From the NCBI GenBank assembly GCA_045630365.1, contig JAZQSZ010000121.1, forward strand, positions 1 through 37,383: DNA of 37,383 nt, in the 5' to 3' direction. The notes beneath the pieces were generated by a model. It had not been told where the DNA came from and made no database searches. It was given only the letters and a program-made list of their open reading frames with translations. Shown in pieces: positions 2,756-37,383 of the stretch; position 1 is the first letter of the stretch, and every line of letters begins with the position of its first letter. Made by a program: the position numbers and the translations under genes. Origin of the DNA: Paludibacteraceae bacterium (GTDB lineage Bacteria > Bacteroidota > Bacteroidia > Bacteroidales > Paludibacteraceae).

Positions 2756-2764
2756 ACAAAACCA

Positions 2765-4493: not shown

Positions 4494-4520
4494 ATACGCC
4501 TTGATTAAGGCGTATTTTTG
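4494..4520 (+). terminator. intrinsic terminator of DUF1846 gene
   Basis: 9-bp stem atacgcctt/aaggcgtat with a 4-nt loop, followed by TTTTTG. Confidence 0.75.
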
Positions 4521-6289: not shown

Positions 6290-6875
6290 GGTTAATGTTT
6301 TATAACAAAAATACGCTTCGTTTCACTCGCTACAAAAATATACAAAAATCAGTTGTTTGTTATGTTATTAAGTCAAGAATGTTAAGAATAATTATGAATG
6401 TTTCAGTTGTTGTACTTTGTTTTGCTCTGGTGTGCAACTCGTTGCAGGTAGAGCAAACCACAAGTATTTGTTTTCATCTAATCTTTTGTCTTGCTCACCA
6501 ATGCAAGGTATTGCATTTATTTGAGCAAAGACAAAAATGATCATGTTATTCTTATTTATTTTTAAAGCGCAGCGTATTCTTGACCAAATTACTTTTTAAC
6601 AAGAATGTTAAGAATAGTTATGAGTATTTCTATTGTTACATATCTGCGTAACTTTTTTGTTTGTAGTCACCAATGCAGCATGCATTCTTATGACTAAAAA
6701 CAAAAATATGTTCTTGATTTTTAATTATTTTTATAGGCATCTCTAAGATGCCGTATTTATGTTTCTACTCTGATCTTTGTCTAACAAAAATGATCATGTA
6801 TATTCTTATTTATTCTTAAAGCGCAGCGTATTCTTGAGTAAATTAATGTTTAACAAGAATGTTATGAATAGTTAC
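6290..6875 (+). repeat. intergenic repeat family B, copy 2 (two tandem modules)
   Basis: 6295-6400 matches 4540-4645. 6650-6875 matches 10085-10325 almost base for base. Confidence 0.8.
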
Positions 6876-6983
6876 CTATAGCCAATCGCCCATTGCCCAT
6901 CACCTCTCCACTCTACACTCTACACCTCTCCACTCTACACTCTACGCCCTTACACTCTACACTCTACACTCTACACCCTACAC
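6876..6983. repeat. heptamer-periodic array (GCCCATW then CTACACY flavour)
   Basis: ctatagccaatcgcccattgcccatcacc...ctacactctacactctacaccctacacc. Supplies the TAG stop of the DUF354 gene. Confidence 0.85.
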
Positions 6984-8106: not shown

Positions 8107-8466
8107 TTATTCTTTATATTTTGATCGTAGAGCAGATAGTTGTCTTGCTATACAATCTATTTTCTCTTCGATTTTATTATATTGTTCTTGTGTTAGATAT
8201 CCAAGTTCTACTGACACGTCCAATTGACTATCCACCTCCATCATAGATGCATACGCAATTCCAAGGAAGTGAGTTTTTTCTTTGTCCGACATCCTATTCA
8301 TGCCTTCGGCTATATTAGATGTAATAGATATCACAGCTCTACGTATCTGATCACATAGTGCATATTTCTCTTCAGTTGGAAAAAGTTTCAGCAGTTTGTA
8401 TACATCCACCACCAAACTCTTTGCATCTTGATACACATTTAAATTCTTGTACGAATACTTATTCAT
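8107..8466 (-). CDS. four-helix-bundle protein (23S rRNA IVS / Avd-like family)
   Basis: 119 aa. KLFPTEEKYALCDQIRRAVISITSNIAEGMNR. Flanked by inverted heptamer arrays at 8028-8100 and 8467-8750. Confidence 0.9.
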   Translation of the reverse strand: MNKYSYKNLNVYQDAKSLVVDVYKLLKLFPTEEKYALCDQIRRAVISITSNIAEGMNRMSDKEKTHFLGIAYASMMEVDSQLDVSVELGYLTQEQYNKIEEKIDCIARQLSALRSKYKE

Positions 8467-8750
8467 TATCCTTGTTAATATAAATTCTACACTCTACACC
8501 TTACACCCTACACCTTACCCCTACACTCTACACCTCTCCACCCTACACTCTACATTCTACACCCTACACTCTACACCCTACACCCTACACCCTACACTCT
8601 ACCCCCTACACCCTACACTCTACACCCTACACTCTACACCCTACACTCTACACCCTACACTCTACACCCTACACTCTACACCCTACACTCTACACTCTAC
8701 ACCCTACACTCTACACCCTACACTCTACACCCTACACTCTACACCCTACC
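8467..8750. repeat. long CTACACY heptamer array (about 40 units), right flank of 4HB gene
   Basis: Near-perfect alternation of ctacacc/ctacact over about 280 nt. It is the reverse complement of the 8028-8060 arm. Confidence 0.95.
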
Positions 8751-9900
8751 CCCGTTTCAACAATTTTACTCCTATTTTTCCAATCCAATATAGTAGTGGT
8801 TTGCGAACGCAGAGGAATCTGCCATGCTCCACTAGTTCGCCTCCGAACTTCGCTTTAAAATCGCGCACACCGTAGGCTTCTTCGGGTTTACCGGCTCCCA
8901 TCATATCAAATATCTTACATCCGTTTTCCGCTGCATATTTGATACCTAAGTAGGTAGCGTAGGTCGATGGATAGATATGCGGATATACGCCATCTATGCC
9001 ACAGGCAAACCATTCGTAGAGGGCTTTGCCTTTGAGTTCCATGCAGACTGTTCCGCCGACTATTTTACCTTCTAGCTCTGTGAGAATAAACCGCGCATCG
9101 GGGCAGCGATAGAGTTGCTCAAACCATTCCCAACGGAACAATGGTGTCTTGACTTTGGTCTTGTATAGGTCCAGGAGAATATCGTAGTAGGCACGTACTT
9201 GCTCTATGGTAGGTTGATATACGGGAGTCACGCCATCGCGGATGGTGGTGCGTATGTCACGCTTACGACTTTTGCCTAGGTTCTGGTCCACCACCTCAGG
9301 TGAGGATGTATCCACATGGAAGTTCAGGTGGGGTTGGTAGGCGTAGCCGTTGGTTTCAAACACTGACTTCCAACGACTATAGTCGTGGAAGTTGCGTGTT
9401 TCTATGTAGATTGGTGTAGGGCGTAGGGCGTAAGGCGTAGAGGCAGATGTTACAGCTCCGCTGTTTTCATTGCCTTTACACTCTACACTATACACTCTAC
9501 ACTCAGCAACTGCTTTCATCAGTGCTGATAAAGCAGTTGCGCTAATATCCTCTGCCAATAATGGTCCACCGATGATGATAGCGCGGCATGTAAGGTATTG
9601 CTTGATTGTATTAGTTTCTTTCGTGATATACCCGACGCATACGCCTTTGAGAGATGGTGTATGGGCGGATGATTCAACTTCGTTGGTTTCATTGCCTATA
9701 GCCCATTGCCCATTGCCCATTGCCTCTGAGTCGCACTCTTGCGACTCTACCACTCCCACCGCAAACGGCATCATCTCGCTAACAGAGACATAGAATTTAT
9801 ATGCTTCTGGTGTTTGAAACCATGTAGCAGTCGCAGAACTTTGAACAAGTTCCTGCCATTGTTGTTGGTCAATTTGTTCGTATGTTAGTATTTTTACCAT
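8746..9900 (-). CDS. FemAB-like / GNAT-fold peptidyl- or aminoacyl-transferase-like protein
   Basis: 384 aa. The length and C-terminal segment (YEWFACGIDG, DFKAKFGGELVEHGRF) resemble FemAB/BioF2-like acetyltransferase families; the function call is tentative. It carries two in-frame palindromic-element insertions. Confidence 0.55.
   Translation of the reverse strand: MVKILTYEQIDQQQWQELVQSSATATWFQTPEAYKFYVSVSEMMPFAVGVVESQECDSEAMGNGQWAIGNETNEVESSAHTPSLKGVCVGYITKETNTIKQYLTCRAIIIGGPLLAEDISATALSALMKAVAECRVYSVECKGNENSGAVTSASTPYALRPTPIYIETRNFHDYSRWKSVFETNGYAYQPHLNFHVDTSSPEVVDQNLGKSRKRDIRTTIRDGVTPVYQPTIEQVRAYYDILLDLYKTKVKTPLFRWEWFEQLYRCPDARFILTELEGKIVGGTVCMELKGKALYEWFACGIDGVYPHIYPSTYATYLGIKYAAENGCKIFDMMGAGKPEEAYGVRDFKAKFGGELVEHGRFLCVRKPLLYWIGKIGVKLLKRG
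9412..9503 (-). repeat. in-frame palindromic element (arm-core-arm) inside FemAB-like CDS
   Basis: Arm ggtgtagggcgtagggcgtaaggcgtagagg, core cagatgttacagctccgctgttttcattgcc, arm tttacactctacactatacactctacactc. Encodes ECRVYSVECKGNENSGAVTSASTPYALRPTP. Confidence 0.8.
9652..9724 (-). repeat. in-frame palindromic element inside FemAB-like CDS (GCCCATT arm)
   Basis: The core atgattcaacttcgttggtttcattgcc is followed by tatagcccattgcccattgcccattgcc. Encodes AMGNGQWAIGNETNEVESSAH. Confidence 0.7.
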
Positions 9901-9904
9901 CGTT

Positions 9905-10325
9905 TTGATTTATGTTTTATAACAAAAATACGCTCCGTTTCACTCCGCTACAAAAATATACAAAAATCAGTTGTTATATTTTAAGTCAAGAATGTTAAGA
10001 ATAGTTATGAATACCTATTGTTATATTTTGTCTTTGCATATAGGAAGCAACCCGTTGCTTAAGTATGCAAAACAAAATATTTTCTATATCTGCGTAACTT
10101 TTTTGTTTGTAGTCACCAATGCAGCATGCATTCTTATGACTAAAAACAAAAATATGTTCTTGATTTTTAATTATTTTTATAGGCATCTCTAAGATGCCGT
10201 ATTTATGTTTCTACCCTGATCTTTGTTTAACAAAAATGATCATGTATATTCTTATTAATTCTTAAAGCGTAGCGTATTCTTGACTAAATAAGTGTTTAAC
10301 AAGAATGTTATGAATAGTTACCTAT
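9905..10325 (+). repeat. intergenic repeat family B, copy 3
   Basis: Same module order as 6290-6875. Confidence 0.8.
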
Positions 10326-10385
10326 AGTCAATAGCCCATCGCCTCTACACCCTACACTCTACGCTCTACACCCTAGACCCTACAC
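10325..10385. repeat. heptamer array at 3' end of GT4 gene
   Basis: cctatagtcaatagcccatcgcctctacaccctacactctacgctctacaccctagaccctacac. Supplies ESVGSRV plus the stop. Confidence 0.8.
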
Positions 10386-11412
10386 TTTCATATATTTCTA
10401 CAAGGCGACTTGCCACTTGTTCGTTAGAGAGTCCCATTTCAATAATTTTCTCTCGACCATTAGTCTTGCCTTCGAATGCGATGGCTTGAAGTAGTGCTTG
10501 CGCAATATCCTTTGGATCACGAGATGGAACCACATAACAGCCTTCCACTCCACTCGTTCGTTCTGCCACATCGCCTACATCCACACTCACGATTGGACAT
10601 CCGCATGCCATGGCTTCTTTGATCACTTGTGGACTACCTTCTGTCTTGCTAGTCATGAGTAGCGCATCGCAATTATACATCAACGCATTTACCTGATCAC
10701 GATTATATCCTTTGAGTTCGATGAGGTTGATGGGGCGATTGTATTCATCGTCTATTGCCCATTGCCTATTGCCCATTGCCAATAGCCCATTACCCATAGC
10801 CGAATTATAACAAGCAATTGCCTCTTTTGCAAGTTCTGGATCCTTCACCGCATTGTCAAACGCACCTGCAAATAGTACATTTTTAACATCTTTGCTCAAT
10901 ACGCTCTGGACCCACTGATTAAGAGTCAGTAGTCCTACCAACTGATTTTGCATTTCGCTCCAAGGTCTTGGAAGGTTTATGCCGCAGGGAAGAAGGGTGC
11001 TACGCTTTTGGGGGCAATTGCCCATTGCCCATTGCCCATAGCCCATAGCCAACTCAACATTCTTCTTAGATACAAAGATATTATGCGCAGAAAGGCGCAT
11101 AGCTATTTTGGAGATGCGCAGGATACTGGGCACATTGATATCGCTTCCATGATAAGTAGTCACTACAGGTGCTATACGTTGCAGGTTTGCTAATAATCCG
11201 CATAGTCCATAGTGCGCATGGATGATATCAGGGCGTTCTGCACGGATAAAGCGTCGTAGTGCAGGTAGCTCACGCAGGTAGCCGATGATACCTTTGCCGG
11301 TTACGCCATAGCGTACTATCTGCACGCCGCAAGCCTCAAGGGCAGCGATCTGCTCCTCGATGAAAGGCACGAAGTGACCGCCTTTGTCGGATGCTATGAT
11401 TAGGAGTTTCAT
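10366..11412 (-). CDS. glycosyltransferase family 4 (GT-B)
   Basis: 348 aa. C-terminal GT4 signature TSKTEGSPQVIKEAMACGCPIVSVDVGDV. Two in-frame GCCCATW-repeat insertions give peptides AMGNGLLAMGNRQWAI and AMGYGQWAMGN. The start overlaps the stop of the upstream 4HB gene (ATGA). Confidence 0.85.
   Translation of the reverse strand: MKLLIIASDKGGHFVPFIEEQIAALEACGVQIVRYGVTGKGIIGYLRELPALRRFIRAERPDIIHAHYGLCGLLANLQRIAPVVTTYHGSDINVPSILRISKIAMRLSAHNIFVSKKNVELAMGYGQWAMGNCPQKRSTLLPCGINLPRPWSEMQNQLVGLLTLNQWVQSVLSKDVKNVLFAGAFDNAVKDPELAKEAIACYNSAMGNGLLAMGNRQWAIDDEYNRPINLIELKGYNRDQVNALMYNCDALLMTSKTEGSPQVIKEAMACGCPIVSVDVGDVAERTSGVEGCYVVPSRDPKDIAQALLQAIAFEGKTNGREKIIEMGLSNEQVASRLVEIYESVGSRV
10729..10801 (-). 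repeat. in-frame GCCCATW heptamer insertion in GT4 CDS
   Basis: gatggggcgattg...attgcccattgcctattgcccattgccaatagcccattacccatagcc. Confidence 0.7.
11010..11050 (-). repeat. in-frame GCCCATW heptamer insertion in GT4 CDS
   Basis: ggggcaattgcccattgcccattgcccatagcccatagcc. Its junction ttgcccccaaaa resembles the 3' junction of the 4HB gene at 11409. Confidence 0.7.
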
Positions 11413-20822: not shown

Positions 20823-22043
20823 CATCCAATCTATTACATTTAATTTACGGATTCCATCATAAACTGGATTAAAATCCATATCCGTAGTCAATAAATACTT
20901 TGGATTTGAATCTTTGATTGCTTTCAATGAAGCCAATTCTCTCTCCAATGTTTCTTGGTTTTCTGTAGTCCAAGCCACTTGGTAATAAGATGTATAATCT
21001 TGGTTATCAATCACCACAAAATCTACCTCTAGATTATTACGTTTTCCTATAAACACTTCCTTGTTGCGACGAATCAATTCGAGATAAACCATATTCTCCA
21101 ACCAATGAGAGCGGTCTTTAAGTACACCTTTTTTTAACCTAACTTTGGCAAAAGCAGGATCCACGACATAATACTTATTCAAAGTTTGCAGAAGTCCTTT
21201 ACCCTTAATCTCAAATCGTGGGACTTTGTAGATTAAATAAGCCTCGCATAATGCATCAAGGTATTTTGCTACAGTCTGTTTATCTACAATTGTGCCATTC
21301 GATCGTAACGTATCAGATATAGAACGTGGAGAAACATACGAACCCACACTATCTAACACAAAGTCCAATATCTTATTAAAATCGTGCTTGTTAGTTATAT
21401 TCAAACGTTGAAAGATATCCTTTTCAACAATTGTTGTCAATATACTTTGAACAAACATATTAGCTTGTTTCTCACTAATAGCCAACTGTTTAGCATATTC
21501 AGGAATACCACCATAATGGATAAAATTCGCCAAAATATCATTTTTTGACAAGTTTGGCGATTTTTCAATTGTAAATCCATAATATTCAGCAAATTGCAAA
21601 GGTAGAAGATTAATCTCTACATAGCGACCTGTAAGTAATGTTGCTAATTCACCAGAAAGCATATATGCATTGGAGCCAGTAATATATACATCCACATTGG
21701 ATTTAATATACAAACTATCTACCAGACGCTGAAAATCTTTTACATTTTGAATTTCGTCTAAGAAAATGTAATTAGGCTGGTTTTCTACCAAACGATCTTT
21801 GATATGTGTATGAACTTGGAAAATATCCCCAATAGCTAATGTATCCAAATCCTCAAAATTATAGAATTGTATTTGCTGCTCCTGCACACCGTTTTGCCTC
21901 AATTCTTCCACGAACATTAGCAACAATGTTGACTTGCCACATCTGCGCACACCGGATATCACCTTAATGATATTTTGATCTTTAAGGTCACGCAGCATTT
22001 GCATATACTGCTTTCGCTCTATTAAATTGTGATTATTAATCAT
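20790..22043 (-). CDS. AAA-family ATPase with DUF4143-type C-terminal region
   Basis: 417 aa. Walker A GVRRCGKSTLL and Walker B YIFLDEIQ. The C-terminal GPSPLTSNL and the stop are encoded by the heptamer arm. Confidence 0.8.
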   Translation of the reverse strand: MINNHNLIERKQYMQMLRDLKDQNIIKVISGVRRCGKSTLLLMFVEELRQNGVQEQQIQFYNFEDLDTLAIGDIFQVHTHIKDRLVENQPNYIFLDEIQNVKDFQRLVDSLYIKSNVDVYITGSNAYMLSGELATLLTGRYVEINLLPLQFAEYYGFTIEKSPNLSKNDILANFIHYGGIPEYAKQLAISEKQANMFVQSILTTIVEKDIFQRLNITNKHDFNKILDFVLDSVGSYVSPRSISDTLRSNGTIVDKQTVAKYLDALCEAYLIYKVPRFEIKGKGLLQTLNKYYVVDPAFAKVRLKKGVLKDRSHWLENMVYLELIRRNKEVFIGKRNNLEVDFVVIDNQDYTSYYQVAWTTENQETLERELASLKAIKDSNPKYLLTTDMDFNPVYDGIRKLNVIDWMLGPSPLTSNL

Positions 22044-22044
22044 T

Positions 22045-22154
22045 TTATTTACTAGCTTTTAATCTCTAACCTATCGCCTCTAACCTCTAACCTATAACCT
22101 CTCACCTATAATCTTTAACCTATAACCTATAATCTATCACCTATAATCTTTAAC
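22045..22154. repeat. heptamer array (CCTATAA/CTTTAAC), inverted relative to 20381-20412
   Basis: taatctctaacctatcgcctctaacctctaacctataacctctcacctataatctttaacctataacctataatctatcacctataatctttaacc. Confidence 0.9.
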
Positions 22155-23153
22155 CTATAACCGAAACCATTTCTCTAACTTGAAAAGCACTCTCTCCACA
22201 AAATACACCAACGGATACAACTTCCATCTCCTCAAGCGCTTCATCTGCTCCATTTCAAACGCATGCGTATCATAATCCCACAGCACCGCTGGTGGCATCA
22301 GTTCCTCCAATACTTGTCTTCTCTCTTTATTTCGCAACGCTAGATTGGTCTCACTTATTCCCCCATCATCAAATATCGTCACATCTATATCCACATACAC
22401 TGGTTTCACTCTACCCAATCCTATCGCTTGCAGATACCACTTCCAATCACTCACAATCTTCAGACTCTCATCATACAAGCCATATTCTTCAAACAGATCC
22501 TTGCGGATATATGCACAATCATGGTTAAGGGTTGATTGATAGAATTGACATAACGAATACTCGGTATAACCACTTTTACCTACTATTTGACCAGCGGCAT
22601 TGACTTTCGTCATGTTGCCGTAGAAAATTGGTGTATTTAGTTTATAGTTTATAGATGATAGGTTATAGGCATTGGTATCAGCTCTGCTGTTTTCTTCACC
22701 TTTAATCTTTAAACTATCACCTTTAATCTCAGCGCATTGCGCAGCAAGCGCTGCCATCATTCTCTCAGTCACATCAGGCGCAGCCAATATATCGCCTGAA
22801 TTTAATATCTGAATATACTCCCCCGTCGCCATCTTAATGCCTTTATTCATGGCATTGTAAATGCCCTTATCCTTTTCGGATACCCATATAACCTTATGCG
22901 CAGGATTTTGGTGTGGATAGTCTTCCTTGTTCCCTTCTGCGCAGGATTTTAGCGAGGCATCTATCTCCCCTTCTTTCAGGAAGGGGCTGGGGGTAGGCTT
23001 GTAGATCTCCAAGACCTCTACCGACCCATCGGTGGAGCCACCATCTACAATAATATGTTCGATATTGGGATATGTTTGTGCAGCAACAGAGGCGAGCGTT
23101 TTGCGCAGTCCTTCGGCGTTATTGTAGTTGATGGTTATGATGGAGAGTCTCAT
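22155..23153 (-). CDS. glycosyltransferase family 2 with in-frame repeat insertions
   Basis: 332 aa. LSIITINYNNAEGLRKTLASVAAQTYPNIEHIIVDGGSTDGS. Insert peptides are PSPFLKEGE (GC hairpin) and IKGDSLKIKGEENSRADTNAYNLSSINYKL (palindromic element). Confidence 0.85.
   Translation of the reverse strand: MRLSIITINYNNAEGLRKTLASVAAQTYPNIEHIIVDGGSTDGSVEVLEIYKPTPSPFLKEGEIDASLKSCAEGNKEDYPHQNPAHKVIWVSEKDKGIYNAMNKGIKMATGEYIQILNSGDILAAPDVTERMMAALAAQCAEIKGDSLKIKGEENSRADTNAYNLSSINYKLNTPIFYGNMTKVNAAGQIVGKSGYTEYSLCQFYQSTLNHDCAYIRKDLFEEYGLYDESLKIVSDWKWYLQAIGLGRVKPVYVDIDVTIFDDGGISETNLALRNKERRQVLEELMPPAVLWDYDTHAFEMEQMKRLRRWKLYPLVYFVERVLFKLEKWFRL
22636..22730 (-). repeat. in-frame palindromic element in GT2 CDS
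   Basis: Arm tttagtttatagtttatagatgataggttatagg, core cattggtatcagctctgctgttttcttcacc, arm tttaatctttaaactatcacctttaatctc. Confidence 0.85.
22965..23002 (-). repeat. GC-rich hairpin motif inserted in-frame (ccccttc...gaagggg + ctggggg)
   Basis: ctccccttctttcaggaaggggctgggggtagg encodes PTPSPFLKEGE. A related copy at 13372-13412 encodes LPFRGGFRRGF. Confidence 0.6.
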
Positions 23154-27779: not shown

Positions 27780-27811
27780 CAAAGGTAGTCATTTTTTTTG
27801 GATTACACAAA
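27780..27811 (-). promoter_or_regulatory. promoter of the glycan operon
   Basis: On the minus strand: TTTG, N20, TAccTTTG. The -7 box lies about 38 nt upstream of the epimerase ATG. Confidence 0.55.
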
Positions 27812-28094: not shown

Positions 28095-28139
28095 AATTAA
28101 ATCATCCTGAAATCCTGCACTTTGCAAATCGCATCGACT

Positions 28140-28847
28140 TTACACTTTACACTTTACGCTTTCTAACTGCCTCAAAGCAATATCTCTAATCTGCCCGACT
28201 CGCTCCTTACTTACGCCTATCAACATCGCCACTTCTTGCAGACTCATAACATCTCGCACCCCCATTCCATACAGCAATTGCACTACCATTCTCTCTCGTC
28301 TCGGCAACTGTTTCAATGCGGCATAAACACCCTGCTTTATTTCCTCGCTAATCATCATGTTTTCTGCCGACTCATATGACGCACTACCTAGCACATTCGT
28401 CTCATCCACTACCATATCGGCATGACAAATATACTCCTCGTCATCTTCAAACACTTTACTATCCAGCATCAGCAACTCCTCTGACTTATTTTGCACAAAT
28501 AGCAATATCCTGTTCTTGATACACTCTGTGGCAAAACTAGCAAAACTATATCCTAACGACGCATCAAAGCAGTCTACCGCTTTTATCAGTCCGATATTGC
28601 CCTCTTGTATCAAGTCCAACACCTCTGCTTTATGCCTAAATTTTGAGTTTTTCGCCATACTCACTACCAGTCGTAAGTACGACTCTATTAGCACCTTTCT
28701 GGCTTCCATATCACCTTGACTCATACGTTCTATTACTGCGTATTCTTCTTGTTCAGTTAACATTTTGTATCTTGCCACTTCCTGTGAATACCAATCCAAT
28801 GGCGACTTCTCTGCTTCAAAATTCATAATACTTAATTTAAAATTCAT
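28140..28847 (-). CDS. sigma-70 family RNA polymerase sigma factor (non-ECF, group-3-like size)
   Basis: 235 aa. Region 2 LRLVVSMAKN...DLIQEGNIGLIKAVDCFD and region 4 LPRRERMVVQLLYGMG...LQEVAMLIGVSKERVGQIRDIALRQL. The start could instead be M8 at 28826. The C-terminal VKCKV and the stop come from a heptamer arm. Confidence 0.85.
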   Translation of the reverse strand: MNFKLSIMNFEAEKSPLDWYSQEVARYKMLTEQEEYAVIERMSQGDMEARKVLIESYLRLVVSMAKNSKFRHKAEVLDLIQEGNIGLIKAVDCFDASLGYSFASFATECIKNRILLFVQNKSEELLMLDSKVFEDDEEYICHADMVVDETNVLGSASYESAENMMISEEIKQGVYAALKQLPRRERMVVQLLYGMGVRDVMSLQEVAMLIGVSKERVGQIRDIALRQLESVKCKV

Positions 28848-29172
28848 AATTCATAATTCGTAATTCAATTTTCTCTCCGCGCTTTAGCGCTTTCTTTACC
28901 CGTTGACGCACTCTTTGGTGCATCTCTTTGGTTTTCAACACTAATCCCTTTAGTTCATAGACTCCCAAAGAAATCTCTCCTTTCACGCTTTTCATAGGTC
29001 CATTACCCTGCATAAAATATCGGTTAAAGTCCTTCTTCGTCACTTTGTATTCCCCGCACGGTCGATGTTTTGCAGGATGCTCTACGGTGTCACAGACTTT
29101 CTTGCCGTTGATATGGCATTCGCCATCAACGCCCCAACTGGAGAAATGTTTTCGTTTGATTTCAATATTCAT
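28837..29172 (-). CDS. hypothetical protein (possibly DUF5675-like)
   Basis: 111 aa. The pattern WGVDGECHINGKKVCDTVEHP...CGEYKV recalls DUF5675-type proteins; this is from memory only and is weak. Confidence 0.5.
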   Translation of the reverse strand: MNIEIKRKHFSSWGVDGECHINGKKVCDTVEHPAKHRPCGEYKVTKKDFNRYFMQGNGPMKSVKGEISLGVYELKGLVLKTKEMHQRVRQRVKKALKRGEKIELRIMNYEF

Positions 29173-29215
29173 AATTTTTAGTTTAGTGTTGAGTGTTTAG
29201 TGTTGAGTGAAGTTA
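29173..29215. repeat. heptamer arm (GTGTTKA flavour) between hypothetical gene and primase
   Basis: tttagtttagtgttgagtgtttagtgttgagtgaagttaagag. Confidence 0.7.
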
Positions 29216-30122
29216 AGAGTTGAGAGGTTGACCAAAGGTCGCTGAAGTCTTTACAGGTGGATGGAAGTTGATGCCTCACCAACTGCGGCAACCTCTTCTG
29301 CAATTCCCAGAACAACCGCTCCCCCGGTTCATCCTGGTCCGGATACATATGCAGATTCAGTCCTTTCAGCGGCACCAGATCCTCCTCCTTCAGCATACTA
29401 GCAGATGGTATCGCTATTGCTTTCCTGCCCGATGACAACATCGCCCAGCAGTCCGAACAACCTTCCGTTATCCACAACTCCTCGCCTGGGTATAACAATC
29501 TCAGCACCTGCAGGTTATATACATGACAACTCGCACCTCTCGGAAACCGAAATCTCGGTTTATCCTCCTTACCCAAGTACCGCGACTGCACACTCATCAA
29601 ACTGCCATCTGCACCATAATACGGTATCAACAACGATGGCGCATCGTAGAATGCTTTTCCATACCGCCAGCAGGGTGTAGGCACATCTATCGAACTCAAT
29701 CGGCACCATCTCACCACGCGCTCATCTATCCGCCTACTAGCCAACCACTCCTGTGCTTCCTGGTTCAGTTTCGGTATCGCCACCAGACTCTGCAGATAAG
29801 GCACATCTGCCTTATATTCCTTACTTTTCGCCACTTCGTTTATTTGCCTCATCGCCTCAAATACCATCGGTCCTCCAAGCCATTCACACGCTTCCTTAAA
29901 CCCACATCCTTTCAACCCCATCACCATATCTATCACTCCCCCGTGCGCATCGCATACGTAACATCTATACCGATTCCTCCTTGTGTCAAAACTCAAACTT
30001 GGATGTCTATCCTCGTGCCACGGACAGCGACTTTTGTGTCTTATTACTTGCAGACCTAATCGTTCTGCTACCATCTCGATCGGAGTATTATTCAACTCCT
30101 GTATTTTCCATTTCTCTATCAT
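29178..30122 (-). CDS. DNA primase-like protein (CHC2 zinc finger + Toprim)
   Basis: 314 aa. CPWHEDRHPSLSFDTRRNRYRCYVCDAHGGVIDMV is a DnaG-type CHC2 finger. LWITEGCSDCWAM...YPDQDEPG is Toprim-like. Confidence 0.85.
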   Translation of the reverse strand: MIEKWKIQELNNTPIEMVAERLGLQVIRHKSRCPWHEDRHPSLSFDTRRNRYRCYVCDAHGGVIDMVMGLKGCGFKEACEWLGGPMVFEAMRQINEVAKSKEYKADVPYLQSLVAIPKLNQEAQEWLASRRIDERVVRWCRLSSIDVPTPCWRYGKAFYDAPSLLIPYYGADGSLMSVQSRYLGKEDKPRFRFPRGASCHVYNLQVLRLLYPGEELWITEGCSDCWAMLSSGRKAIAIPSASMLKEEDLVPLKGLNLHMYPDQDEPGERLFWELQKRLPQLVRHQLPSTCKDFSDLWSTSQLLTSLNTKHSTLN

Positions 30123-30157: not shown

Positions 30158-30215
30158 ACCTTCCGGTAGCCATTGCTGCTCCTCGCAACCTCTTAGCCCT
30201 CTATCTGCGATGCTT
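30158..30215. repeat. ~58-nt conserved non-coding block, copy 1 (upstream of primase)
   Basis: accttccggtagccattgctgctcctcgcaacctcttagccctctatctgcgatgc, compared with 36165-36222 acctgccggtagccattgttgttcctcgcaacctgtttgacctttatctatgatttt. Confidence 0.75.
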
Positions 30216-30283
30216 TTCCCGCCTCTCGCCTCTCGCCCATAGCCCCTCGCCCATAGCCAATAGCCAATAGCCTCTCGCCCATC
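30216..30283. repeat. heptamer array (CTCGCCY/GCCCATA/GCCAATA)
   Basis: ttcccgcctctcgcctctcgcccatagcccctcgcccatagccaatagccaatagcctctcgcccatc. Confidence 0.8.
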
Positions 30284-31609
30284 TCACACCTTCTCAAAAG
30301 TATTCTTATCCACCTCACGTATCACCCTCATCTTTCGCCACATGTATAGGAATACTCTTGACGGGGTTGTTAAACCTAATTCCTCAATTTTCAGATTCAA
30401 CTGATCTCTCGTAAACGGACTAGTCAATTGCTCAAACAATATCGGTTTCGCTTGCACCATATGACTCAAATCACGCTTCTGGTTCAACTCGTCAAACGAC
30501 TTTCCCCAACGATTCAGCATACTATTCAAGGTATATTCTGCCATGTACAAGTAGATCTTCTTGCTGAGTTTCTGCATCTTATCCTCGCTGTAGGCACCTT
30601 CCAAGCGATACAGATAGTAGCACAGTGCCGCCACACGAAAAGCTGTTACACTACTACGCTTACGAAACACATCCAAGGACTTATTTCCCGACAATGCCGC
30701 CTCTTGTCCCTTCTCTTTAATCCATTTACAGATCGTTTTATTCAGCCATGACATATCCAAATCCACCACAGGCTGCAACCCGCCATCCTCGTCATAGGTC
30801 TCGCTCATCAGATGACTCAACATACTGTCTATCCTCTTCTTCTGCTCCGGACTATACGGAATAAATATTGCACCTTCCTGACCCAAATCATCGTCCAGTG
30901 GACACAGCAGACAGCGGGTCACATTACCGCCCTCGATAGCCTTCTTGTCGTAATAGTCATCGACCGCCGAAGGAGTGGCGCAGAACATCGAACAGATGTT
31001 GATATCCACTATCGCCGAATACGAATTTTCAGAGGCAAAGTCGATACCGAACTGCGAACCCAAGTCATATGCGGTACGCATAATTGTTCGCAGGTTTGAA
31101 TAGCCCTGTTTGCCCGCATCCGTCACTTGCGCCAACTCCTCGGCAAACATCCAGAAGGTCAAAGTATCCTTCAATACTCGCTGAAACATATCCGCACGCT
31201 TGGTCAACACGGTCTTCGATATAGTCGCAGGCACCACTCGGATGGTCGTCTGTGGTTCTTCACCAACCTTCTCGTTTGCTCGTCTGCGTTTTTTGAGTTC
31301 TCGGTACTCCTGTTCAGCACGACGCATCGCTTGGTCTTTGAGTTTCAGGGTTTTGTCCATGATAAGTGACTCGATATCGGCGGCAAACGACTTACCGGAT
31401 GACTGTGCACCTTCTATCAGTACTTGTAGCAGCAATGCTGATGGTCGGCTGTCGTAGTAATACTGCAACCTGACTCTGCTGCATAGTGCACATAGGGGTG
31501 ATAAACTGGCCACGAAGGCGGGTACTTTTCTACTACTGGGAGCGTTGCTCACGATCTCCCTAATTATCGCAGGTAATTCCTGGTCTTTTGGTAAAACGAA
31601 TGTATTCAT
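30284..31609 (-). CDS. P-loop protein associated with primase (DUF3987-like?; helicase/loader candidate)
   Basis: 441 aa. Walker-A-like GAQSSGKS. Sits immediately upstream of the primase. The family assignment is tentative. Confidence 0.55.
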   Translation of the reverse strand: MNTFVLPKDQELPAIIREIVSNAPSSRKVPAFVASLSPLCALCSRVRLQYYYDSRPSALLLQVLIEGAQSSGKSFAADIESLIMDKTLKLKDQAMRRAEQEYRELKKRRRANEKVGEEPQTTIRVVPATISKTVLTKRADMFQRVLKDTLTFWMFAEELAQVTDAGKQGYSNLRTIMRTAYDLGSQFGIDFASENSYSAIVDINICSMFCATPSAVDDYYDKKAIEGGNVTRCLLCPLDDDLGQEGAIFIPYSPEQKKRIDSMLSHLMSETYDEDGGLQPVVDLDMSWLNKTICKWIKEKGQEAALSGNKSLDVFRKRSSVTAFRVAALCYYLYRLEGAYSEDKMQKLSKKIYLYMAEYTLNSMLNRWGKSFDELNQKRDLSHMVQAKPILFEQLTSPFTRDQLNLKIEELGLTTPSRVFLYMWRKMRVIREVDKNTFEKV

Positions 31610-31626
31610 AATTCTCTGATTATCTT

Positions 31627-31944
31627 TTACTCTAATAGGTCTCTCTTCGCCGTCATCAGATCTCTGTAGATGCTACCTGCTACTTTCAGCACACTCGCAT
31701 CGTCATCCAAAATCATCGGTTTGAAGTTCACACTCAGACTGCCGTCTGGTTTCTTACTAATGTTCAGCGTCTTTCCACTCCACAATCGTGGGTTGCGGTT
31801 GTTGCTTCTTTTGGCTGCTTCGTAGAACACAAAATTGTCTTCATCTTGCATACTCAACACGCCTGTTCTTGACTCCTGTGGACGGAAATATGTCTCCGCG
31901 GTCATTGCCTTTAGATCCACACACAAATAAATCTGCTTCTTCAT
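31627..31944 (-). CDS. hypothetical protein
   Basis: 105 aa from the internal ATG (MKKQIYLCVDLK). The longer 32013 start would overlap the upstream ORF. I recognise no motif. Confidence 0.5.
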   Translation of the reverse strand: MKKQIYLCVDLKAMTAETYFRPQESRTGVLSMQDEDNFVFYEAAKRSNNRNPRLWSGKTLNISKKPDGSLSVNFKPMILDDDASVLKVAGSIYRDLMTAKRDLLE

Positions 31945-31945
31945 A

Positions 31946-32326
31946 CTAGTTATTATTATATATGTTATATATAGATTCCATAAAATCATCTGGACGAATA
32001 AAGGTCGAACCATCCACTATAGGATCAAAATCCAACACTTCCTTTGTGCTAACTTCACAACGAACATCGTATTGCTTCAAGCATAGATTCATCATTTCAA
32101 CGGCTTTTTTACAATACTCTCGCCACATCTTTCTGCACAGCTCTTTGCCTATAGAAATCGTTACACTCATTCTGCATTCGCTCTCCTCATGAAATTCTTT
32201 TACAAACGACCAAAATCGCAGATGCTCACGTGCAGACAGTAATGCCTGTCTTGAGGGACATACCATGGTGATATGTACTAAACCTGTCACGCTCTTTTTC
32301 CTACAGATACTACAGTTCCATTTCAT
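31946..32326 (-). CDS. hypothetical protein
   Basis: 126 aa. First gene of the minus-strand operon, with a promoter-like TAccTTTG box about 60 nt upstream. No recognised domain. Confidence 0.5.
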   Translation of the reverse strand: MKWNCSICRKKSVTGLVHITMVCPSRQALLSAREHLRFWSFVKEFHEESECRMSVTISIGKELCRKMWREYCKKAVEMMNLCLKQYDVRCEVSTKEVLDFDPIVDGSTFIRPDDFMESIYNIYNNN

Positions 32327-32574: not shown

Positions 32575-32606
32575 TTTGCAAGAGTCGAAAAAAAATAGTA
32601 TCTTTG
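32575..32606 (+). promoter_or_regulatory. Bacteroidota-type promoter of the four-gene operon
   Basis: TTTG (32575-32578), N20, then TAtcTTTG (32599-32606). The ATG lies 20 nt downstream. Confidence 0.6.
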
Positions 32607-32625
32607 CACCCTCAAATGATTAAGC

Positions 32626-33516
32626 ATGAGCAACAAGAAAAACAATATGCCCAAATGGGATGATTACTCCATCCGTTCTACTGCCTACTATCAAAAACAA
32701 GGTGGTATATATAGTATACTTCTTACCATTCTTATGAATATGAGAAGTACATTCCGGTATAGGTATATAAACCAACCTTACATGGTTCTCAATTATGCTA
32801 CATTTAAATGCGACTGTTTGATTTATGGAGATGGCGAACTAGACGAAATACTTGCTAACTGTTCAAAAGAAGAAAAATATACAATTTTAATATTACTTCT
32901 GACTAATAAACATTATGATAATAAGATTTGGGTAATACAATATTACCAAACTTTAAAGTCTAGTGGCGATAAGATGTTCTATCAGTTTGATTCTTTGTGG
33001 AGTAGAATCATAGAAGACGAAAACATTGACTTACCTGAAGATATTTCTTTAAACAACCATTCTAAAACTGAAAAAGAGATACTAGACAATTCACTAGCTG
33101 ATGAAATACTAGCACTGAAAGCGAATCTACAAGATGCACAAAAGACAATAGAGGAACAACAAAAAACAATTCAGAACCTTAATAATACTACCGCAAATTC
33201 TATTGACAAATATTTTACCTTGGAGATACTCATAGACTATGTGCGTTCAAGGAGACATTACCATAATTCCCTGCAAATTATCAATATGATCAAAGATTTG
33301 TTAAGAGGGTGTAATGACAAAGCAATCTGGGACAAAGTAGATGCTATGGAGCAAGAGATGTTAGAGAAAGACCAACCGCATTCGATAATAAACAATAATA
33401 CCATTACTGGCAGTAACGTAATAACTGGGTTAGTAAATAATCCTAAATTCCCTATCGGAGTTGATCCAGTCGAATTTATACAATCAGCTGTTAACGAAAA
33501 ATTAAATTCTCTATAA
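32626..33516 (+). CDS. hypothetical protein A of four-gene operon (central coiled-coil-like segment, Asn-rich C-terminus)
   Basis: 296 aa. A canonical promoter lies 20 nt upstream. The heptad-like stretch EILALKANLQDAQKTIEEQQKTIQNLNN is present. No recognised domain. Confidence 0.65.
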   Translation: MSNKKNNMPKWDDYSIRSTAYYQKQGGIYSILLTILMNMRSTFRYRYINQPYMVLNYATFKCDCLIYGDGELDEILANCSKEEKYTILILLLTNKHYDNKIWVIQYYQTLKSSGDKMFYQFDSLWSRIIEDENIDLPEDISLNNHSKTEKEILDNSLADEILALKANLQDAQKTIEEQQKTIQNLNNTTANSIDKYFTLEILIDYVRSRRHYHNSLQIINMIKDLLRGCNDKAIWDKVDAMEQEMLEKDQPHSIINNNTITGSNVITGLVNNPKFPIGVDPVEFIQSAVNEKLNSL

Positions 33517-33518
33517 GA

Positions 33519-34199
33519 ATGAACCCTAACAATGAAAATCAACCAACTATTGTGAATCACAATGAGATGCACAATTGCAATGTTTTTAACGGAAATGTTT
33601 ATAATGCGACATTCCCGTTGCCTGGTGCGCAAGTAACCATTCATCAATACGCTGCTGATTCCACAGGTAACCCCAAACAAGAAAAACAAGGTCCTATAGA
33701 ACCTGCAGAAGAACGCACAAAGCGCAAAGAGGTGGCTTTTAACAATATGTACCGTAAACTTGAGAACCTTGAAGAGAGTATGCTAGGTTACAACAATAAC
33801 GGAGAGCGAATCACACACTTTCAATTGTCGATACTTTTGCATAGATGTTTAGGTATGCACTCTACGCCTTCAAAAGAAGAGTATATGCCTATCCAAGAAA
33901 CCTTATGGACTATTTTGATTGATGCTCGTAATAGATGTATTAAAGACCCTAAAGAACTTTATTACCCACAAACATTTCTGAATATTGTAGGTTATCTTCG
34001 CAAGCAACAGATTATTATCAATACACAGCCGACTCAATTGCTCGGTATCTTGTATCCTGATTTAAGAGATAGTGAAAAAAAGAGGTTATCCGTACACATA
34101 GATAGAGTATTCTTGACAACAAGCAATAACCCAATTATTGACGGACTCGAAGATATGTTTAACTTCTATACAAACCTTTTGAAAAATGGCGAAATCTAA
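33519..34199 (+). CDS. hypothetical protein B of four-gene operon
   Basis: 226 aa. Starts 2 nt after the gene A stop. Asn-rich N-terminus NHNEMHNCNVFNGNVYNATF. No recognised domain. Confidence 0.6.
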   Translation: MNPNNENQPTIVNHNEMHNCNVFNGNVYNATFPLPGAQVTIHQYAADSTGNPKQEKQGPIEPAEERTKRKEVAFNNMYRKLENLEESMLGYNNNGERITHFQLSILLHRCLGMHSTPSKEEYMPIQETLWTILIDARNRCIKDPKELYYPQTFLNIVGYLRKQQIIINTQPTQLLGILYPDLRDSEKKRLSVHIDRVFLTTSNNPIIDGLEDMFNFYTNLLKNGEI

Positions 34200-35124
34200 G
34201 AAGAAAACAGATGGTTCTTCTTGGGGAGGACCTTGGACGGAACAAAAACTTGACTGCTTCGAAAGCTATGTCAAGGCGTACCTCACAATCATGAATAGTC
34301 ATCGAGATAAGTACAATTGGAAACTTATCTATTTTGATGGCTTTGCTGGTTGTGGTAGTCGTTCGTTTGACAATTGTGAAGACGAAAATTCTAAAGATGA
34401 ATTAATGGAGCTCTTCGAATCGGAAAATTGTGCTGATACCAAGAAAGAACTGAATGTCTATGCAGGCGCAGCAGAAAGAGTAATACGTCTTGAGCAATCT
34501 ATGCGTGGTTTTGATTTTTACTATTTCGTTGATACAAACGAAAATAATCTTACCAAATTGGATCTAAAATTAGCTCAATATGAATTGAAAGGCACAAGAG
34601 TTTTTCGTCATGACAACGCTAATCACCAAGCTACTATGCTGGCAGATGCTATGGCAAAGAATCCTAAACTAAAAACATTATGTTTCCTTGATCCTTTTGG
34701 TATGAATATCAACTGGGAAAGCATACAACAATTAGCTGGAAAATCGATTGACCTTTGGATTCTTGTACCGATTGGAACAATTGTTAATAGATTAGTCAAA
34801 ACAGATGGAACCTTAATGTATCCTGAAAGACTTGAAAGTTTCTTTGGATTACATAGAAATGAAATACAAAAACGAATGCAAGTAGTCGAAACAGAGCAAA
34901 CATTGTTTGGTGAAGAAAGAAAAATTCATAAAGTGAATGATGCTATTTCTAAACTCGCAAATCTATATTGCGAACAGTTAGGCACACTTTTTGACTTTGT
35001 TACCAACGAACCACTTGTACTCTATAACTCTAATCATTTGCCTATTTTCCACTTCGTATGTGCATCCAACAACAAAACTGCCATACGAATTGCTAAACAG
35101 ATAATAGATAAAAGACAAGCTTAA
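34186..35124 (+). CDS. three-Cys-motif partner protein (TcmP-like)
   Basis: 312 aa. WTEQKLDCFESYVKAYLTIM, IYFDGFAGCGS and CFLDPFG match my recollection of the TcmP family, and it sits directly upstream of a Gp37/Gp68 three-Cys protein, which is the defining gene pair. Overlaps gene B by 14 nt. Confidence 0.75.
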   Translation: MAKSKKKTDGSSWGGPWTEQKLDCFESYVKAYLTIMNSHRDKYNWKLIYFDGFAGCGSRSFDNCEDENSKDELMELFESENCADTKKELNVYAGAAERVIRLEQSMRGFDFYYFVDTNENNLTKLDLKLAQYELKGTRVFRHDNANHQATMLADAMAKNPKLKTLCFLDPFGMNINWESIQQLAGKSIDLWILVPIGTIVNRLVKTDGTLMYPERLESFFGLHRNEIQKRMQVVETEQTLFGEERKIHKVNDAISKLANLYCEQLGTLFDFVTNEPLVLYNSNHLPIFHFVCASNNKTAIRIAKQIIDKRQA

Positions 35125-35125
35125 T

Positions 35126-35866
35126 ATGAGAACCACCAAAATAGAATGGACCGAAAGAACATGGAACCCAGTCACTGGATGCTCCAAGGTTTCTGAGGGC
35201 TGTACACATTGCTATGCTGAAACCATGGCTCGTAGACTACAGGCCATGGGATTGACTAAGTATCGCAATGGATTTAGAACCACATTGCACCCAGAAACTC
35301 TCAGAGAACCTTTCTCATGGACAACACCATCCACCATATTTGTTTGTTCCATGTCAGACCTATTTCACACCGATGTACCTTTTGAGTTTATAGATCAGGT
35401 ACTAGATGTGATTCGTCGCACACCTCAACATAGATACCAACTCCTCACCAAAAGAGCCGAGCGAATGGCAGAATACTTCATGACACGCCAGGTTCCAAGA
35501 AATGCTTGGATTGGCGTTACTGTTGAATGTCAATCCTCTATGCATAGAATAGATGCTCTTAGAGATATCCAGCATGCCCCTGTAAGATTCTTAAGTTGTG
35601 AACCACTACTAGAAGACCTACCTAATCTCAACCTTCAAGACATCAATTGGGTAATCGTAGGCGGAGAGAGTGGTGTGTCAGGAAGACCAATGAAACCAGA
35701 ATGGGTAAAAAGCATCCAACAACAAGCCAAGCAACAACATACTGCATTCTTTTTCAAACAATGGGGTACTTGGGGTGAGGACGGAGTCAAAAGATCCAAA
35801 ACAAAAAATGGAAAACTACTCGATGGCAAAATAGTACAACAAATGCCCAAAATCAATAAACGATAA
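35126..35866 (+). CDS. phage Gp37/Gp68 family three-Cys-motif protein (DUF5131)
   Basis: 246 aa. N-terminus KIEWTERTWNPVTGCSKVSEGCTHCYAE (C19-x6-C26-x2-C29), FVCSMSDLFH, NWVIVGGESG...RPMKPEWV. Confidence 0.85.
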   Translation: MRTTKIEWTERTWNPVTGCSKVSEGCTHCYAETMARRLQAMGLTKYRNGFRTTLHPETLREPFSWTTPSTIFVCSMSDLFHTDVPFEFIDQVLDVIRRTPQHRYQLLTKRAERMAEYFMTRQVPRNAWIGVTVECQSSMHRIDALRDIQHAPVRFLSCEPLLEDLPNLNLQDINWVIVGGESGVSGRPMKPEWVKSIQQQAKQQHTAFFFKQWGTWGEDGVKRSKTKNGKLLDGKIVQQMPKINKR

Positions 35867-35922
35867 GTTTTAACCTATCTTAGATAAGAACACGAGCGTA
35901 AAGCGTAAAGTGTAAACTCGAT

Positions 35923-35953
35923 GCGATTTGCAATGTGCAAGTCGCATTTTTTT
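35923..35953 (+). terminator. intrinsic terminator of the four-gene TcmP operon
   Basis: Stem gcgatttgca / tgcaagtcgc (one G:U) with loop atg, followed by ATTTTTTT. Confidence 0.75.
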
Positions 35954-36164
35954 ATCCTCGACGCCATCTAGTGCGCTAGACTATCTATAGTCCATAGAGC
36001 AAGCAGTCGTAAACTACAATTCCATTATCAATTTTCGCGCAGGCGCACATGTCATTTACAATTTCTATCTACTTTACGCTTTACACTTTACACATATATG
36101 ATTCGGTCGCAAGTTGTTGGAATAAGTTGTCTAAGTTGTCGTATTTTTTTCGGTTTGATTGCGC

Positions 36165-36222
36165 ACCTGCCGGTAGCCATTGTTGTTCCTCGCAACCTGT
36201 TTGACCTTTATCTATGATTTTG
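36165..36222. repeat. ~58-nt conserved non-coding block, copy 2
   Basis: See 30158-30215. Roughly 48 of 58 positions are identical by eye. Confidence 0.75.
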
Positions 36223-36490
36223 TACGAATCCACTCTCGATGTATATCCTTGATTATCTGCCATTTGTAGAGATTATTTCACAAACTACGAGAAAACGCCC
36301 TCACAAGTTCGAGAAAACCCTTTGTTTTACCCCTTTTTTTCGATATATATATAGTAGGGCGTCTCTTCTGACGCAGCACATGTTGCGCAGATGTTACGCC
36401 GATGTTAGCACCTATATTTTAGACCTTCTAACAAGTGTAAAGTGTAAACTCGATGTGATTCGCTTTGCACAATTTGTCTTACAATTAAGA

Positions 36491-36564
36491 GGGGTTGTAG
36501 CTCAGTCTGGTAGAGCAGCTGTTTTGCAAACAGAAAGTCGTGGGTTCGAATCCCACCTTCTCCA
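36491..36564 (+). tRNA. tRNA-Ala(UGC)-like gene, possibly defective
   Basis: Hand-folded cloverleaf. D arm is gctc/agtctggta/gagc. The anticodon loop tttgcaa gives UGC. T arm is gtggg/ttcgaat/cccac. G3:U70 is present. However, 5:68 and 6:67 are U:U, 27:43 is G:A, and no CCA is encoded. Confidence 0.6.
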
Positions 36565-36646
36565 CAATGTGGGGCACCTCCCGCAACCAAGAACGTTCTT
36601 TAAAATCCTATCCTCTAAACTCTCAACTCTAAACTCTCAATCACGT

Positions 36647-36964
36647 ATGGCAAAGTACATTCCTATTGACACCATCAAATCCATGTCCGGTAAAGTCTGC
36701 GAGCATTCCGACATCTATTTCGCTAAGCGAGGTAAGACCCTCTATACTGGCAAACGATGCAACCCTCGCGACTTGGACAAGAAACCTTATTCCGAAGCCG
36801 AATTGGCTCGTCAAGCTAAGTTCGCACAAGTCCGTGCTGCTATTGCTGCACTCACTCCAGAGCAGATTGCGGACTACCAAACTGCTTTTGAGAAGTACCC
36901 AGGCAAGTATTCAACCCTCAACGGCTACATCTTCGCCCAAGAGTACGCCAAACTTGGCGAGTAA
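36647..36964 (+). CDS. hypothetical small protein
   Basis: 105 aa from ATG 36647 (MAKYIPIDTIKSMSGKV). The longer ORF-track version (36239) runs through the tRNA-like gene and is rejected. Confidence 0.5.
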   Translation: MAKYIPIDTIKSMSGKVCEHSDIYFAKRGKTLYTGKRCNPRDLDKKPYSEAELARQAKFAQVRAAIAALTPEQIADYQTAFEKYPGKYSTLNGYIFAQEYAKLGE

Positions 36965-37195: not shown

Positions 37196-37235
37196 GTGCG
37201 GCAATATAGCCGCAGGTTCGATTGCCGAACATGAA

Positions 37236-37383
37236 ATGGCACAAATTGAATATGCATTCCCTGTGGAGAAGATCCACGGCAAGATTTCCAAGAAACACAA
37301 AATCGGTTTTGCACACCGCACCGCCTCTGGCGTTAACTACAGCACCGCGTATGGTAAGCGCAAGACCAAACCTAGCACCGCTG
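37236..37383 (+). CDS. hypothetical small protein, 3' end outside window (possible paralog of 36647..36964)
   Basis: Open frame MAQIEYAFPVEKIHGKISKKHKIGFAHRTASGVNYSTAYGKRKTKPSTA. Shares the pattern P-[IV]-[DE]-x-I..GK[VI]....I.FA.R...GKR with the preceding ORF. Confidence 0.35.
   Translation, partial: MAQIEYAFPVEKIHGKISKKHKIGFAHRTASGVNYSTAYGKRKTKPSTA

Follow-up and report, generated by a model that had tools for sequence, protein, structure and literature searches.

We analysed a stretch of 37,383 nt from a Paludibacteraceae bacterium (contig JAZQSZ010000121.1 of assembly GCA_045630365.1, positions 1 to 37,383 of the forward strand), called the window in the following. It carries an operon of four genes, A to D. 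Gene C encodes a TcmP protein and gene D a DUF5131 (Gp37/Gp68) protein with three cysteines. Next to the operon, on the opposite strand, lies a cassette with sigma-70, primase and P-loop genes (Table 1). The four-gene operon is best read as a single transcription unit that joins two evolutionary modules. An earlier note on this DNA had taken C and D for a probable nucleic-acid modification pair and A and B for possible specificity, sensor or effector subunits. Related loci are given by their numbers (L001, L002 and so on), related proteins likewise (P0156 and so on).

Organisation of the operon

The open reading frames are tightly packed, as described in the earlier note: A and B are separated by 2 nt, B and C overlap by 14 nt, and a gap of 1 nt lies between C and D. 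The promoter and the intrinsic terminator that it had listed were both found. The promoter is of the Bacteroidetes type (TTTG-N20-TAtcTTTG) and ends 20 nt upstream of the ATG of gene A. The general form TTTG-N19-21-TAnnTTTG occurred seven times in the window, with 0.73 copies expected, and none of 100 shuffled sequences reached seven. The operon promoter was the only copy on the forward strand, and it was kept in L024, the closest relative. The terminator scan found no other terminator-like hairpin on the forward strand between gene A and the next gene.

The G+C content (GC) was 0.324 for gene A, 0.369 for B, 0.357 for C and 0.426 for D, and the GC at third codon positions of the operon was 0.28–0.36. 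An AT-rich appearance, noted earlier by eye, is therefore real for the operon when compared to the housekeeping block (0.467), but it does not extend to the rest of the cassette (primase 0.484, P-loop gene 0.469).

Table 1. Positions of the operon, the adjoining cassette and the associated repeats in the window
Feature	Position	Strand	Remarks
Heptamer/14-nt arrays	8459-8794, 22039-22162, 10728-11052, 30206-30282, 36613-36640, 29181-29208		within the window
Inverted repeat, left arm	28116-28160		45 nt, 93% complementary to the right arm
Sigma-70	28140-28847	-	Pfam/PHROGs; cassette backbone
DUF5675-like	28837-29172	-	Pfam/PHROGs; cassette backbone
CHC2 primase	29178-30122	-	Pfam/PHROGs; cassette backbone
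P-loop DUF3987/VapE-like protein	30284-31609	-	Pfam/PHROGs; cassette backbone
128-aa protein	31627-32013	-	cassette backbone
u126	31946-32326	-	126 aa, motif EHLRYWPYVK; divergent from the operon; presence co-varies with TcmP-DUF5131
Promoter TTTG-N20-TAtcTTTG	32575-32606	+	Bacteroidetes type; TTTG 32575-32578, TAtcTTTG 32599-32606
Gene A	32626-33516	+	296 aa; 289 aa with the M8 start used by gene callers in relatives
Gene B	33519-34199	+	226 aa
Gene C (TcmP)	34186-35124	+	312 aa
Gene D (DUF5131 / Gp37-Gp68)	35126-35866	+	246 aa
Inverted repeat, right arm	35895-35939		45 nt; overlaps the operon terminator
Intrinsic terminator	35920-35953	+	13-bp stem 35920-35948, then T run; overlaps the right inverted-repeat arm

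The TcmP-DUF5131 pair

Genes C and D are an ordinary member of a widespread and already listed candidate system, TcmP-DUF5131. Gene C matched the NCBIfam model for TcmP (TIGR04474) with 116.7 bits (cut-off 53, E 1.7e-33) over residues 16–309 and model positions 1–261 of 263. Gene D matched Pfam PF07505 with 351.9 bits (gathering score 28.9, E 2.3e-105) over model positions 1–243 of 243, and PHROGs phrog_2045 with an E value of 1.9e-92. The three-Cys DUF5131 neighbour that marks TcmP is present, as D begins at 35126, right after the end of C at 35124. Moreover, both component models of the PADLOC entry PDC-M41 were matched by these adjacent genes (PDC-M41A, PDLC04636, E 5.9e-100 for C; PDC-M41B, PDLC04639, E 6.1e-113 for D). 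The pairing of the third and fourth gene, recognised in the earlier note from motifs, was thus borne out, with both families matched over their full length on the same strand.

The PDC entries of PADLOC are guilt-by-embedding candidates. A literature search found no functional study of TcmP, DUF5131/PF07505, PDC-M30/M41, TIGR04474/04471 or GMT-wHTH, in agreement with the earlier note, by which neither partner is known to have a demonstrated biochemical function. In Sinorhizobium meliloti, a TcmP gene and the Hna defence gene are assigned to the same putative transcription unit, and TcmP rises along with Hna.

The number of TcmP clusters exceeded 2,162, and DUF5131 was present in 179 of 50,697 phage records and 403 of 72,556 plasmid records. 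The pair occurred without A and B in Synechococcus phage Ssp-JY39, in Gordonia phage Jablanski (near integrase and immunity genes) and on the conjugative Pseudomonas plasmid pCAR1.3 (near an integrase). Compared to PDC-M41 and the related PDC-M30, the locus is alike in that both proteins are full-length, adjacent and on the same strand, on mobile-type DNA near defence genes. It differs in that the pair forms the tail of an operon led by the lineage-specific genes A and B, inside a primase/P-loop/sigma cassette.

In three related loci, a second TcmP-family paralogue sits between TcmP and DUF5131 (L011 7936-9126, L014 9214-10389 and L039 6516-7685). It is of the PDC-M30A type, with ~390 aa and a C-terminal GMT-like winged helix-turn-helix (wHTH) domain (PF22560). 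Hence, one DUF5131 can pair with two TcmP types. Gene C of the window is of the short type and lacks the wHTH domain seen in PDC-M30A. L014 has a further gene of 418 aa between TcmP and DUF5131.

The cysteine triad of gene D

Gene D contains C19-x6-C26-x2-C29 and, at residues 179–183, GGESG. The three cysteines and the following tyrosine were invariant across eight homologues down to 37% identity, and the other cysteines were not conserved. The spacing of the triad varies among DUF5131 homologues. That of an Enterocloster phage shows the canonical Cx3CxxC, that of mycobacteriophage Sparky Cx9CxxC. RadicalSAM.org lists DUF5131 as Megacluster-5-2 with the cluster motif CX6CX2C (PMC9477430). By its sequence, gene D is assigned to this catalogued radical S-adenosylmethionine (SAM) subgroup, which is defined by Cx6CxxC. 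The earlier idea that the triad could ligate an Fe-S cluster fits this assignment, since the triad is the Cx6CxxC radical-SAM variant of the subgroup.

Gene D shares the N-terminal cysteine triad followed by an aromatic residue with Megacluster-5 of the radical-SAM superfamily, which also includes MJ0683-like proteins (5-1) and spore photoproduct lyase (5-3). It differs from the radical-SAM superfamily at large in that DUF5131 has no characterised member and no solved structure that is detectable by sequence. Gene D had no meaningful match among PDB sequences, spore photoproduct lyase included, and did not match PF04055 in Pfam. TIGR04471, named 'radical SAM mobile pair protein A', is homologous to gene D over residues 14–212 (E 4.7e-27), and the name likewise denotes a paired, mobile radical-SAM protein. 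As gene D reached only 94.9 bits, far below the cut-off of 355, TIGR04471 is regarded as a sister family with a different partner.

Fold of TcmP

Both motifs that the earlier note had pointed out in gene C are present, IYFDGFAGCGS at residues 48–58 and FLDPFG at residues 167–172. They are the sole conserved sequence blocks across TcmPs of 18–22% identity. Nine residues were invariant in this alignment, including D51, G55, G57, D169, P170 and G172.

The AlphaFold2 model of gene C (predicted local distance difference test, pLDDT, 78; predicted template modelling score, pTM, 0.77) shows alternating strands and helices. The modelled strands beta1 to beta4 comprise residues 46–51, 111–116, 137–142 and 162–168. 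They are followed by FAGCG, D116, D144-A-N146 and D169-PFG, respectively, which correspond to methyltransferase motifs I–IV. A disordered insert of 35 residues follows motif I. In a Foldseek search of the model against the PDB, the top matches were SAM methyltransferases, including all 13 matches with E ≤ 0.001. The best match was Trm1 from Aquifex (3axs; E 2.7e-5, template modelling score (TM-score) 0.41), a tRNA N2,N2-dimethylguanosine methyltransferase, followed by AzeJ, EgtD, TYW4, HNMT and TGS1; KsgA was also among the matches. Motif IV has an uncommon form in both proteins and reads DLDPFGT in Trm1 3axs, DLDPFGS in Trm1 2dul and FLDPFG in TcmP.

Because of the Foldseek matches, the placement of motifs I and IV and the shared DPFG, TcmP is best read as a SAM-binding, Trm1-like class-I methyltransferase fold that is not a member of the Trm1 family by sequence. 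The earlier likening of the two TcmP motifs to methyltransferase motifs I and IV agrees with the model, where they stand directly after beta1 and beta4 as in the class-I fold, and Trm1 has the same DPFG straight after beta4. Trm1 differs in several respects. Neither gene C nor a profile of 47 gene C sequences had a meaningful match among PDB sequences, and the Trm1 family (Pfam TRM) was not matched by gene C even at E ≤ 1–10 (Pfam, PDB). TcmP has the 35-residue insert and another C-terminal region, and Trm1 needs no radical-SAM partner.

Genes A and B

Gene A has a coiled coil in its middle and a C-terminal motif NNNxIxGSNVxTGLVNNPxFPIG. Gene B has a disordered N-terminus with a motif that is shared with A, followed by a helical domain (AlphaFold2 pLDDT 73.5). 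The common motif of about 25 residues, (S/C)NV(I/F)xGxVxNxxFP(I/L), lies at the C-terminus of A (33390-33470) and the N-terminus of B (33560-33630; hhalign E 1.7e-4). Fused A-B proteins exist (P0156, P0178, P0184 and P0162), with a single copy of this motif, and A and B are therefore taken as two halves of one protein. Judged from these sequences, A/B appears to be one rare Bacteroidales protein that is encoded in two pieces. In L009, a different protein of 205 aa upstream of B also ends with the shared motif.

In searches of Pfam, NCBIfam, PADLOC and PHROGs, gene A gave coiled-coil noise in Pfam and otherwise nothing, and gene B gave no match. The model of B had no Foldseek match below E 0.1 in the PDB or in the viral structures of BFVD; a match to UpxZ with E of about 5 was treated as noise. 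An index of 5.8 billion proteins held 15 clusters of A and 18 of B. When 1.84 billion representatives were searched in full with an HMMER profile, 55 clusters of B were found, almost all from Paludibacteraceae and Prevotella. Relatives of B were found in 14 of 185,579 species genomes (Paludibacteraceae, Prevotella, Bacteroidaceae and other Bacteroidales). As neither the 2.9 million viral contigs of IMG/VR nor 50,697 phage genomes contained a relative of B, we do not call the cassette a phage.

The cassette with and without the pair

The cassette is of a replication type and consists, in relatives, of the P-loop DUF3987/VapE-like gene, usually with CHC2 primase and the DUF5675-like gene and often with sigma-70. 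The gene order was the same in L001-L015, L024, L025, L029, L034 and L037. In all loci surveyed, A/B, split or fused, was the first gene divergent from the cassette, whether the pair was present or not. Most lineages have the order A-B-TcmP-(extra genes)-DUF5131, and the 14-nt overlap of B and TcmP is found in most of them. One clade of B has the cassette without TcmP and DUF5131 (L006-10, L029 and L026; L027 and L030 were too short to judge). The same holds for one lineage with fused A-B (L041-43). In the loci with B only, the right repeat arm of the cassette directly follows B.

The simplest reading is that A/B is a backbone gene of the cassette and C/D a cargo pair, and not that the four genes form a four-subunit machine, because A/B stands beside the cassette without the pair and the pair occurs elsewhere without A/B. 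The subunit role (specificity, sensor or effector) that the earlier note had considered for A and B does not agree with this distribution, nor with their being halves of one protein. From its position, A/B may have a regulatory or DNA-handling role in the cassette.

The small gene u126 behaved differently. It was found in every surveyed locus with C and D and was absent from every surveyed locus without them, although this co-occurrence sample may hold only two or three independent loss events. No match to u126 was found in Pfam and PADLOC. We regard it as a candidate regulator or fifth component, and as a better accessory candidate than A or B.

Genomic neighbourhood

Relatives have a variable defence hotspot in the slot immediately after DUF5131. 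It holds a type II methyltransferase and a restriction enzyme in L001 (11185-14132), a restriction-enzyme-like ATPase in L002 (10514-13226), a type III restriction-modification (RM) system with a YafQ/ParE-family toxin in L016 (8709-13804) and the candidate PDC-S41 in L005 (11284-12546). In the window, the slot (35954-36490) is empty and consists of non-coding repeat DNA. The defence or mobile-element context proposed earlier is plausible, given that the pair is a PADLOC candidate and that RM systems lie directly downstream in related loci.

The tRNA-like gene beside the operon proved to be a genuine tRNA-Ala(UGC) at 36491-36565 (63.8 bits), but a tRNA neighbour is not conserved. It was rejected as an integration site, as other tRNAs, or no tRNA at all, lie near the related loci. 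At the other side, the sigma end of the cassette adjoins a ~20-kb polysaccharide biosynthesis locus (6978-27811) on the same strand with its own promoter (27780-27811). In L024 (642-1517), a sugar nucleotidyltransferase is also found at the sigma end, and the promoter region is conserved.

Inverted repeat and intergenic repeats

The inverted repeat that was said to bracket a mobile cassette is real. It encloses the genes from sigma to DUF5131, and the same two boundaries were found in L002-10, L025 and L029. The arms consist of heptamer repeats and a hairpin, a kind that is common in the intergenic DNA of the window. Extra copies of the unit lie at 36055-36091 and 36433-36472, and L024 has one within its cassette. 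The flanks examined showed neither an integrase nor a transposase. These points weaken the interpretation of the repeat as transposon ends.

In L001 and L025, the small genes that follow DUF5131 in the window (36647-36964 and about 37216-37345) are found beside sigma and point the other way. For the segment of about 37216-37345, L024 and L006 agree with the window in the side on which it lies. The swapped small genes in L001 and L025 are consistent with what an inversion of the repeat-bracketed 7.8-kb segment would give.

Tandem heptamer or 14-nt arrays fill the intergenic DNA (CTACACC, TAACCTA, GCCCATT, GTAAAGT and similar units). Some are inverted around a central hairpin, with a family of about 99 nt at 9407, 19449, 20094 and 22633. 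A direct repeat of 54 nt (83% identity) lies in the gap between primase and P-loop gene (30158-30211) and in non-coding DNA downstream of the operon (36165-36218); in L024, the same gap holds a copy of the inverted-repeat core. A unit of ~100-150 nt with a perfect TTTG-N-TAnnTTTG has three copies on the reverse strand (4511-4662, 6297-6423 and 9915-10036). Within the polysaccharide locus region, a segment of 287 nt is duplicated with 94% identity (6640-6926 and 10086-10372). Two genes for a '23S rRNA intervening sequence protein' (bAvd-like four-helix bundle) are located at 2378-2755 and 8107-8466, the first of them flanked by arrays of 22/36-nt repeats (2267-3026).

Proposed mechanism

Taken together, the results favour a composite of a cassette backbone and a nucleic-acid-modifying cargo pair, with a probability of roughly 0.55. 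The mechanism is deduced from folds and motifs. DUF5131 would hold a [4Fe-4S] cluster on C19, C26 and C29 and would cleave SAM to give a 5'-deoxyadenosyl radical. A second SAM would be bound by TcmP in its Rossmann methyltransferase pocket, and the Trm1-type DPFG loop could accommodate a flipped-out purine or pyrimidine. Jointly, the two proteins would install a covalent base modification on a nucleic acid. DNA would be the favoured target because the TcmP paralogues that share a DUF5131 partner with TcmP have a winged-helix domain at their C-terminus. The most likely role is in conflicts of mobile element, phage and host, where the pair would mark or protect DNA or damage the nucleic acid of an invader.

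A bolder version, which we consider rather doubtful, is a radical-SAM-dependent novel base modification in DNA. The Trm1-like fold would present a flipped base, and the Cx6CxxC enzyme would activate an unreactive position of it. In these Bacteroidales cassettes, the system would be controlled by u126 and expressed from an invertible 7.8-kb segment, and its product would be the first polymer-level radical-SAM mark of an epigenetic or defence kind.

Several points weigh against the composite. The TM-scores of gene C to methyltransferases are low (0.31–0.41), and no methyltransferase family matched TcmP by HMMER in the Pfam and PDB sequence searches. The structural relatives nearest to TcmP in Foldseek act on tRNA or small molecules, not on DNA, and the mechanism of the pair is itself drawn from folds and motifs. 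PDC-M41 is a candidate listing that is not validated as a defence system. Finally, lineages with just 37–66% identity in B retain both the order A-B-C-D and the overlap of B and C by 14 nt. This fits co-inheritance, but it fits a functional link too.

Alternative explanations

This conserved order is an argument for the view of the earlier note, an integrated system of four or five components in which A/B and perhaps u126 are sensor, specificity or scaffold subunits that TcmP-DUF5131 needs. A-B-C-(extra TcmP)-D is contiguous in at least eight diverged lineages, including L016-18 with a different replication protein, and the conserved B/C overlap points in the same direction. Gene C is without the wHTH of some paralogues, so a partner could supply target binding, and u126 co-varies perfectly with C and D. 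We nevertheless find such a system unlikely. B and fused A-B stand beside the cassette without TcmP or DUF5131, and in phages and plasmids of other phyla the pair is a stand-alone unit of two genes. The A/B family is also tiny (55 clusters compared to >2,162 for TcmP), and the co-occurrence could go back to just two or three loss events. An RNA target (tRNA or rRNA) is likewise doubtful. TcmP would act like Trm1 or TYW4 and DUF5131 like TYW1, RlmN or MiaB, for example to build a hypermodified guanosine, and this would retune translation or protect tRNAs in phage conflict. The top structural matches of TcmP do modify tRNA (Trm1 and TYW4), followed by TGS1 and KsgA, and DPFG is common to TcmP and Trm1. 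Some phage annotators also label DUF5131 as 'RNA methyltransferase', but these are unverified annotations. The low TM-scores limit the structural argument, with the small-molecule methyltransferases AzeJ, EgtD and HNMT ranking equally high. Moreover, the wHTH-bearing TcmP paralogues suggest binding of double-stranded DNA, and the RM neighbours and mobile DNA fit a conflict over DNA.

The small-molecule methyltransferases among the top fold matches could instead indicate a viperin-like product, a small molecule or nucleotide made by DUF5131 and methylated by TcmP that would serve as a metabolite against viruses or in signalling. Free nucleotides are known substrates of some radical-SAM defence enzymes, and Ophion, which contains a radical-SAM protein, was recently validated. 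The gene set of Ophion differs, however, and Ophion was rejected as the identity of this system; no nucleotide-handling partner (kinase or phosphoribosyltransferase) was found in the operon by Pfam. Motif IV of the DPFG/(D/N)PP(F/Y) type is typical of nucleobase amino-methyltransferases. This and the existence of wHTH-bearing TcmP paralogues make a small-molecule product very improbable. Least probable, and close to negligible, is a repair of mobile-element or phage DNA akin to that by spore photoproduct lyase. DUF5131 and the lyase are in the same megacluster (5) of RadicalSAM.org, but in separate subgroups (5-2 and 5-3). One phage record (H34) labels a DUF5131 homologue as such a lyase, again an unverified annotation, and gene D had no sequence match to any solved structure, the lyase included. 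An obligate partner with a methyltransferase fold is foreign to such repair chemistry.

The composite also has to be set against classical RM. Like RM systems, the pair has a protein of SAM-methyltransferase fold with an amino-methyltransferase-like motif IV, and type II and III RM systems are its neighbours in related loci. Unlike them, the operon has no nuclease or effector (no nuclease domain or restriction endonuclease model was found in A–D by Pfam, NCBIfam and PADLOC), and classical RM has nothing that corresponds to the radical-SAM partner.

Significance

The locus leaves the identity of the TcmP-DUF5131 pair unchanged and adds to what can be said about it. D51 and D169 stand out as candidate key residues of TcmP, as deduced from a SAM-methyltransferase fold with a Trm1-type DPFG loop. 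The pair is separable from the upstream genes A and B. In gut and rumen Bacteroidales, it rides a specific primase/P-loop/sigma cassette, next to a slot in which restriction systems accumulate. DUF5131 as a whole spans hundreds of phages and plasmids across phyla. If the chemistry indeed acts on DNA, this would be new enzymology for bacterial immunity or anti-restriction.

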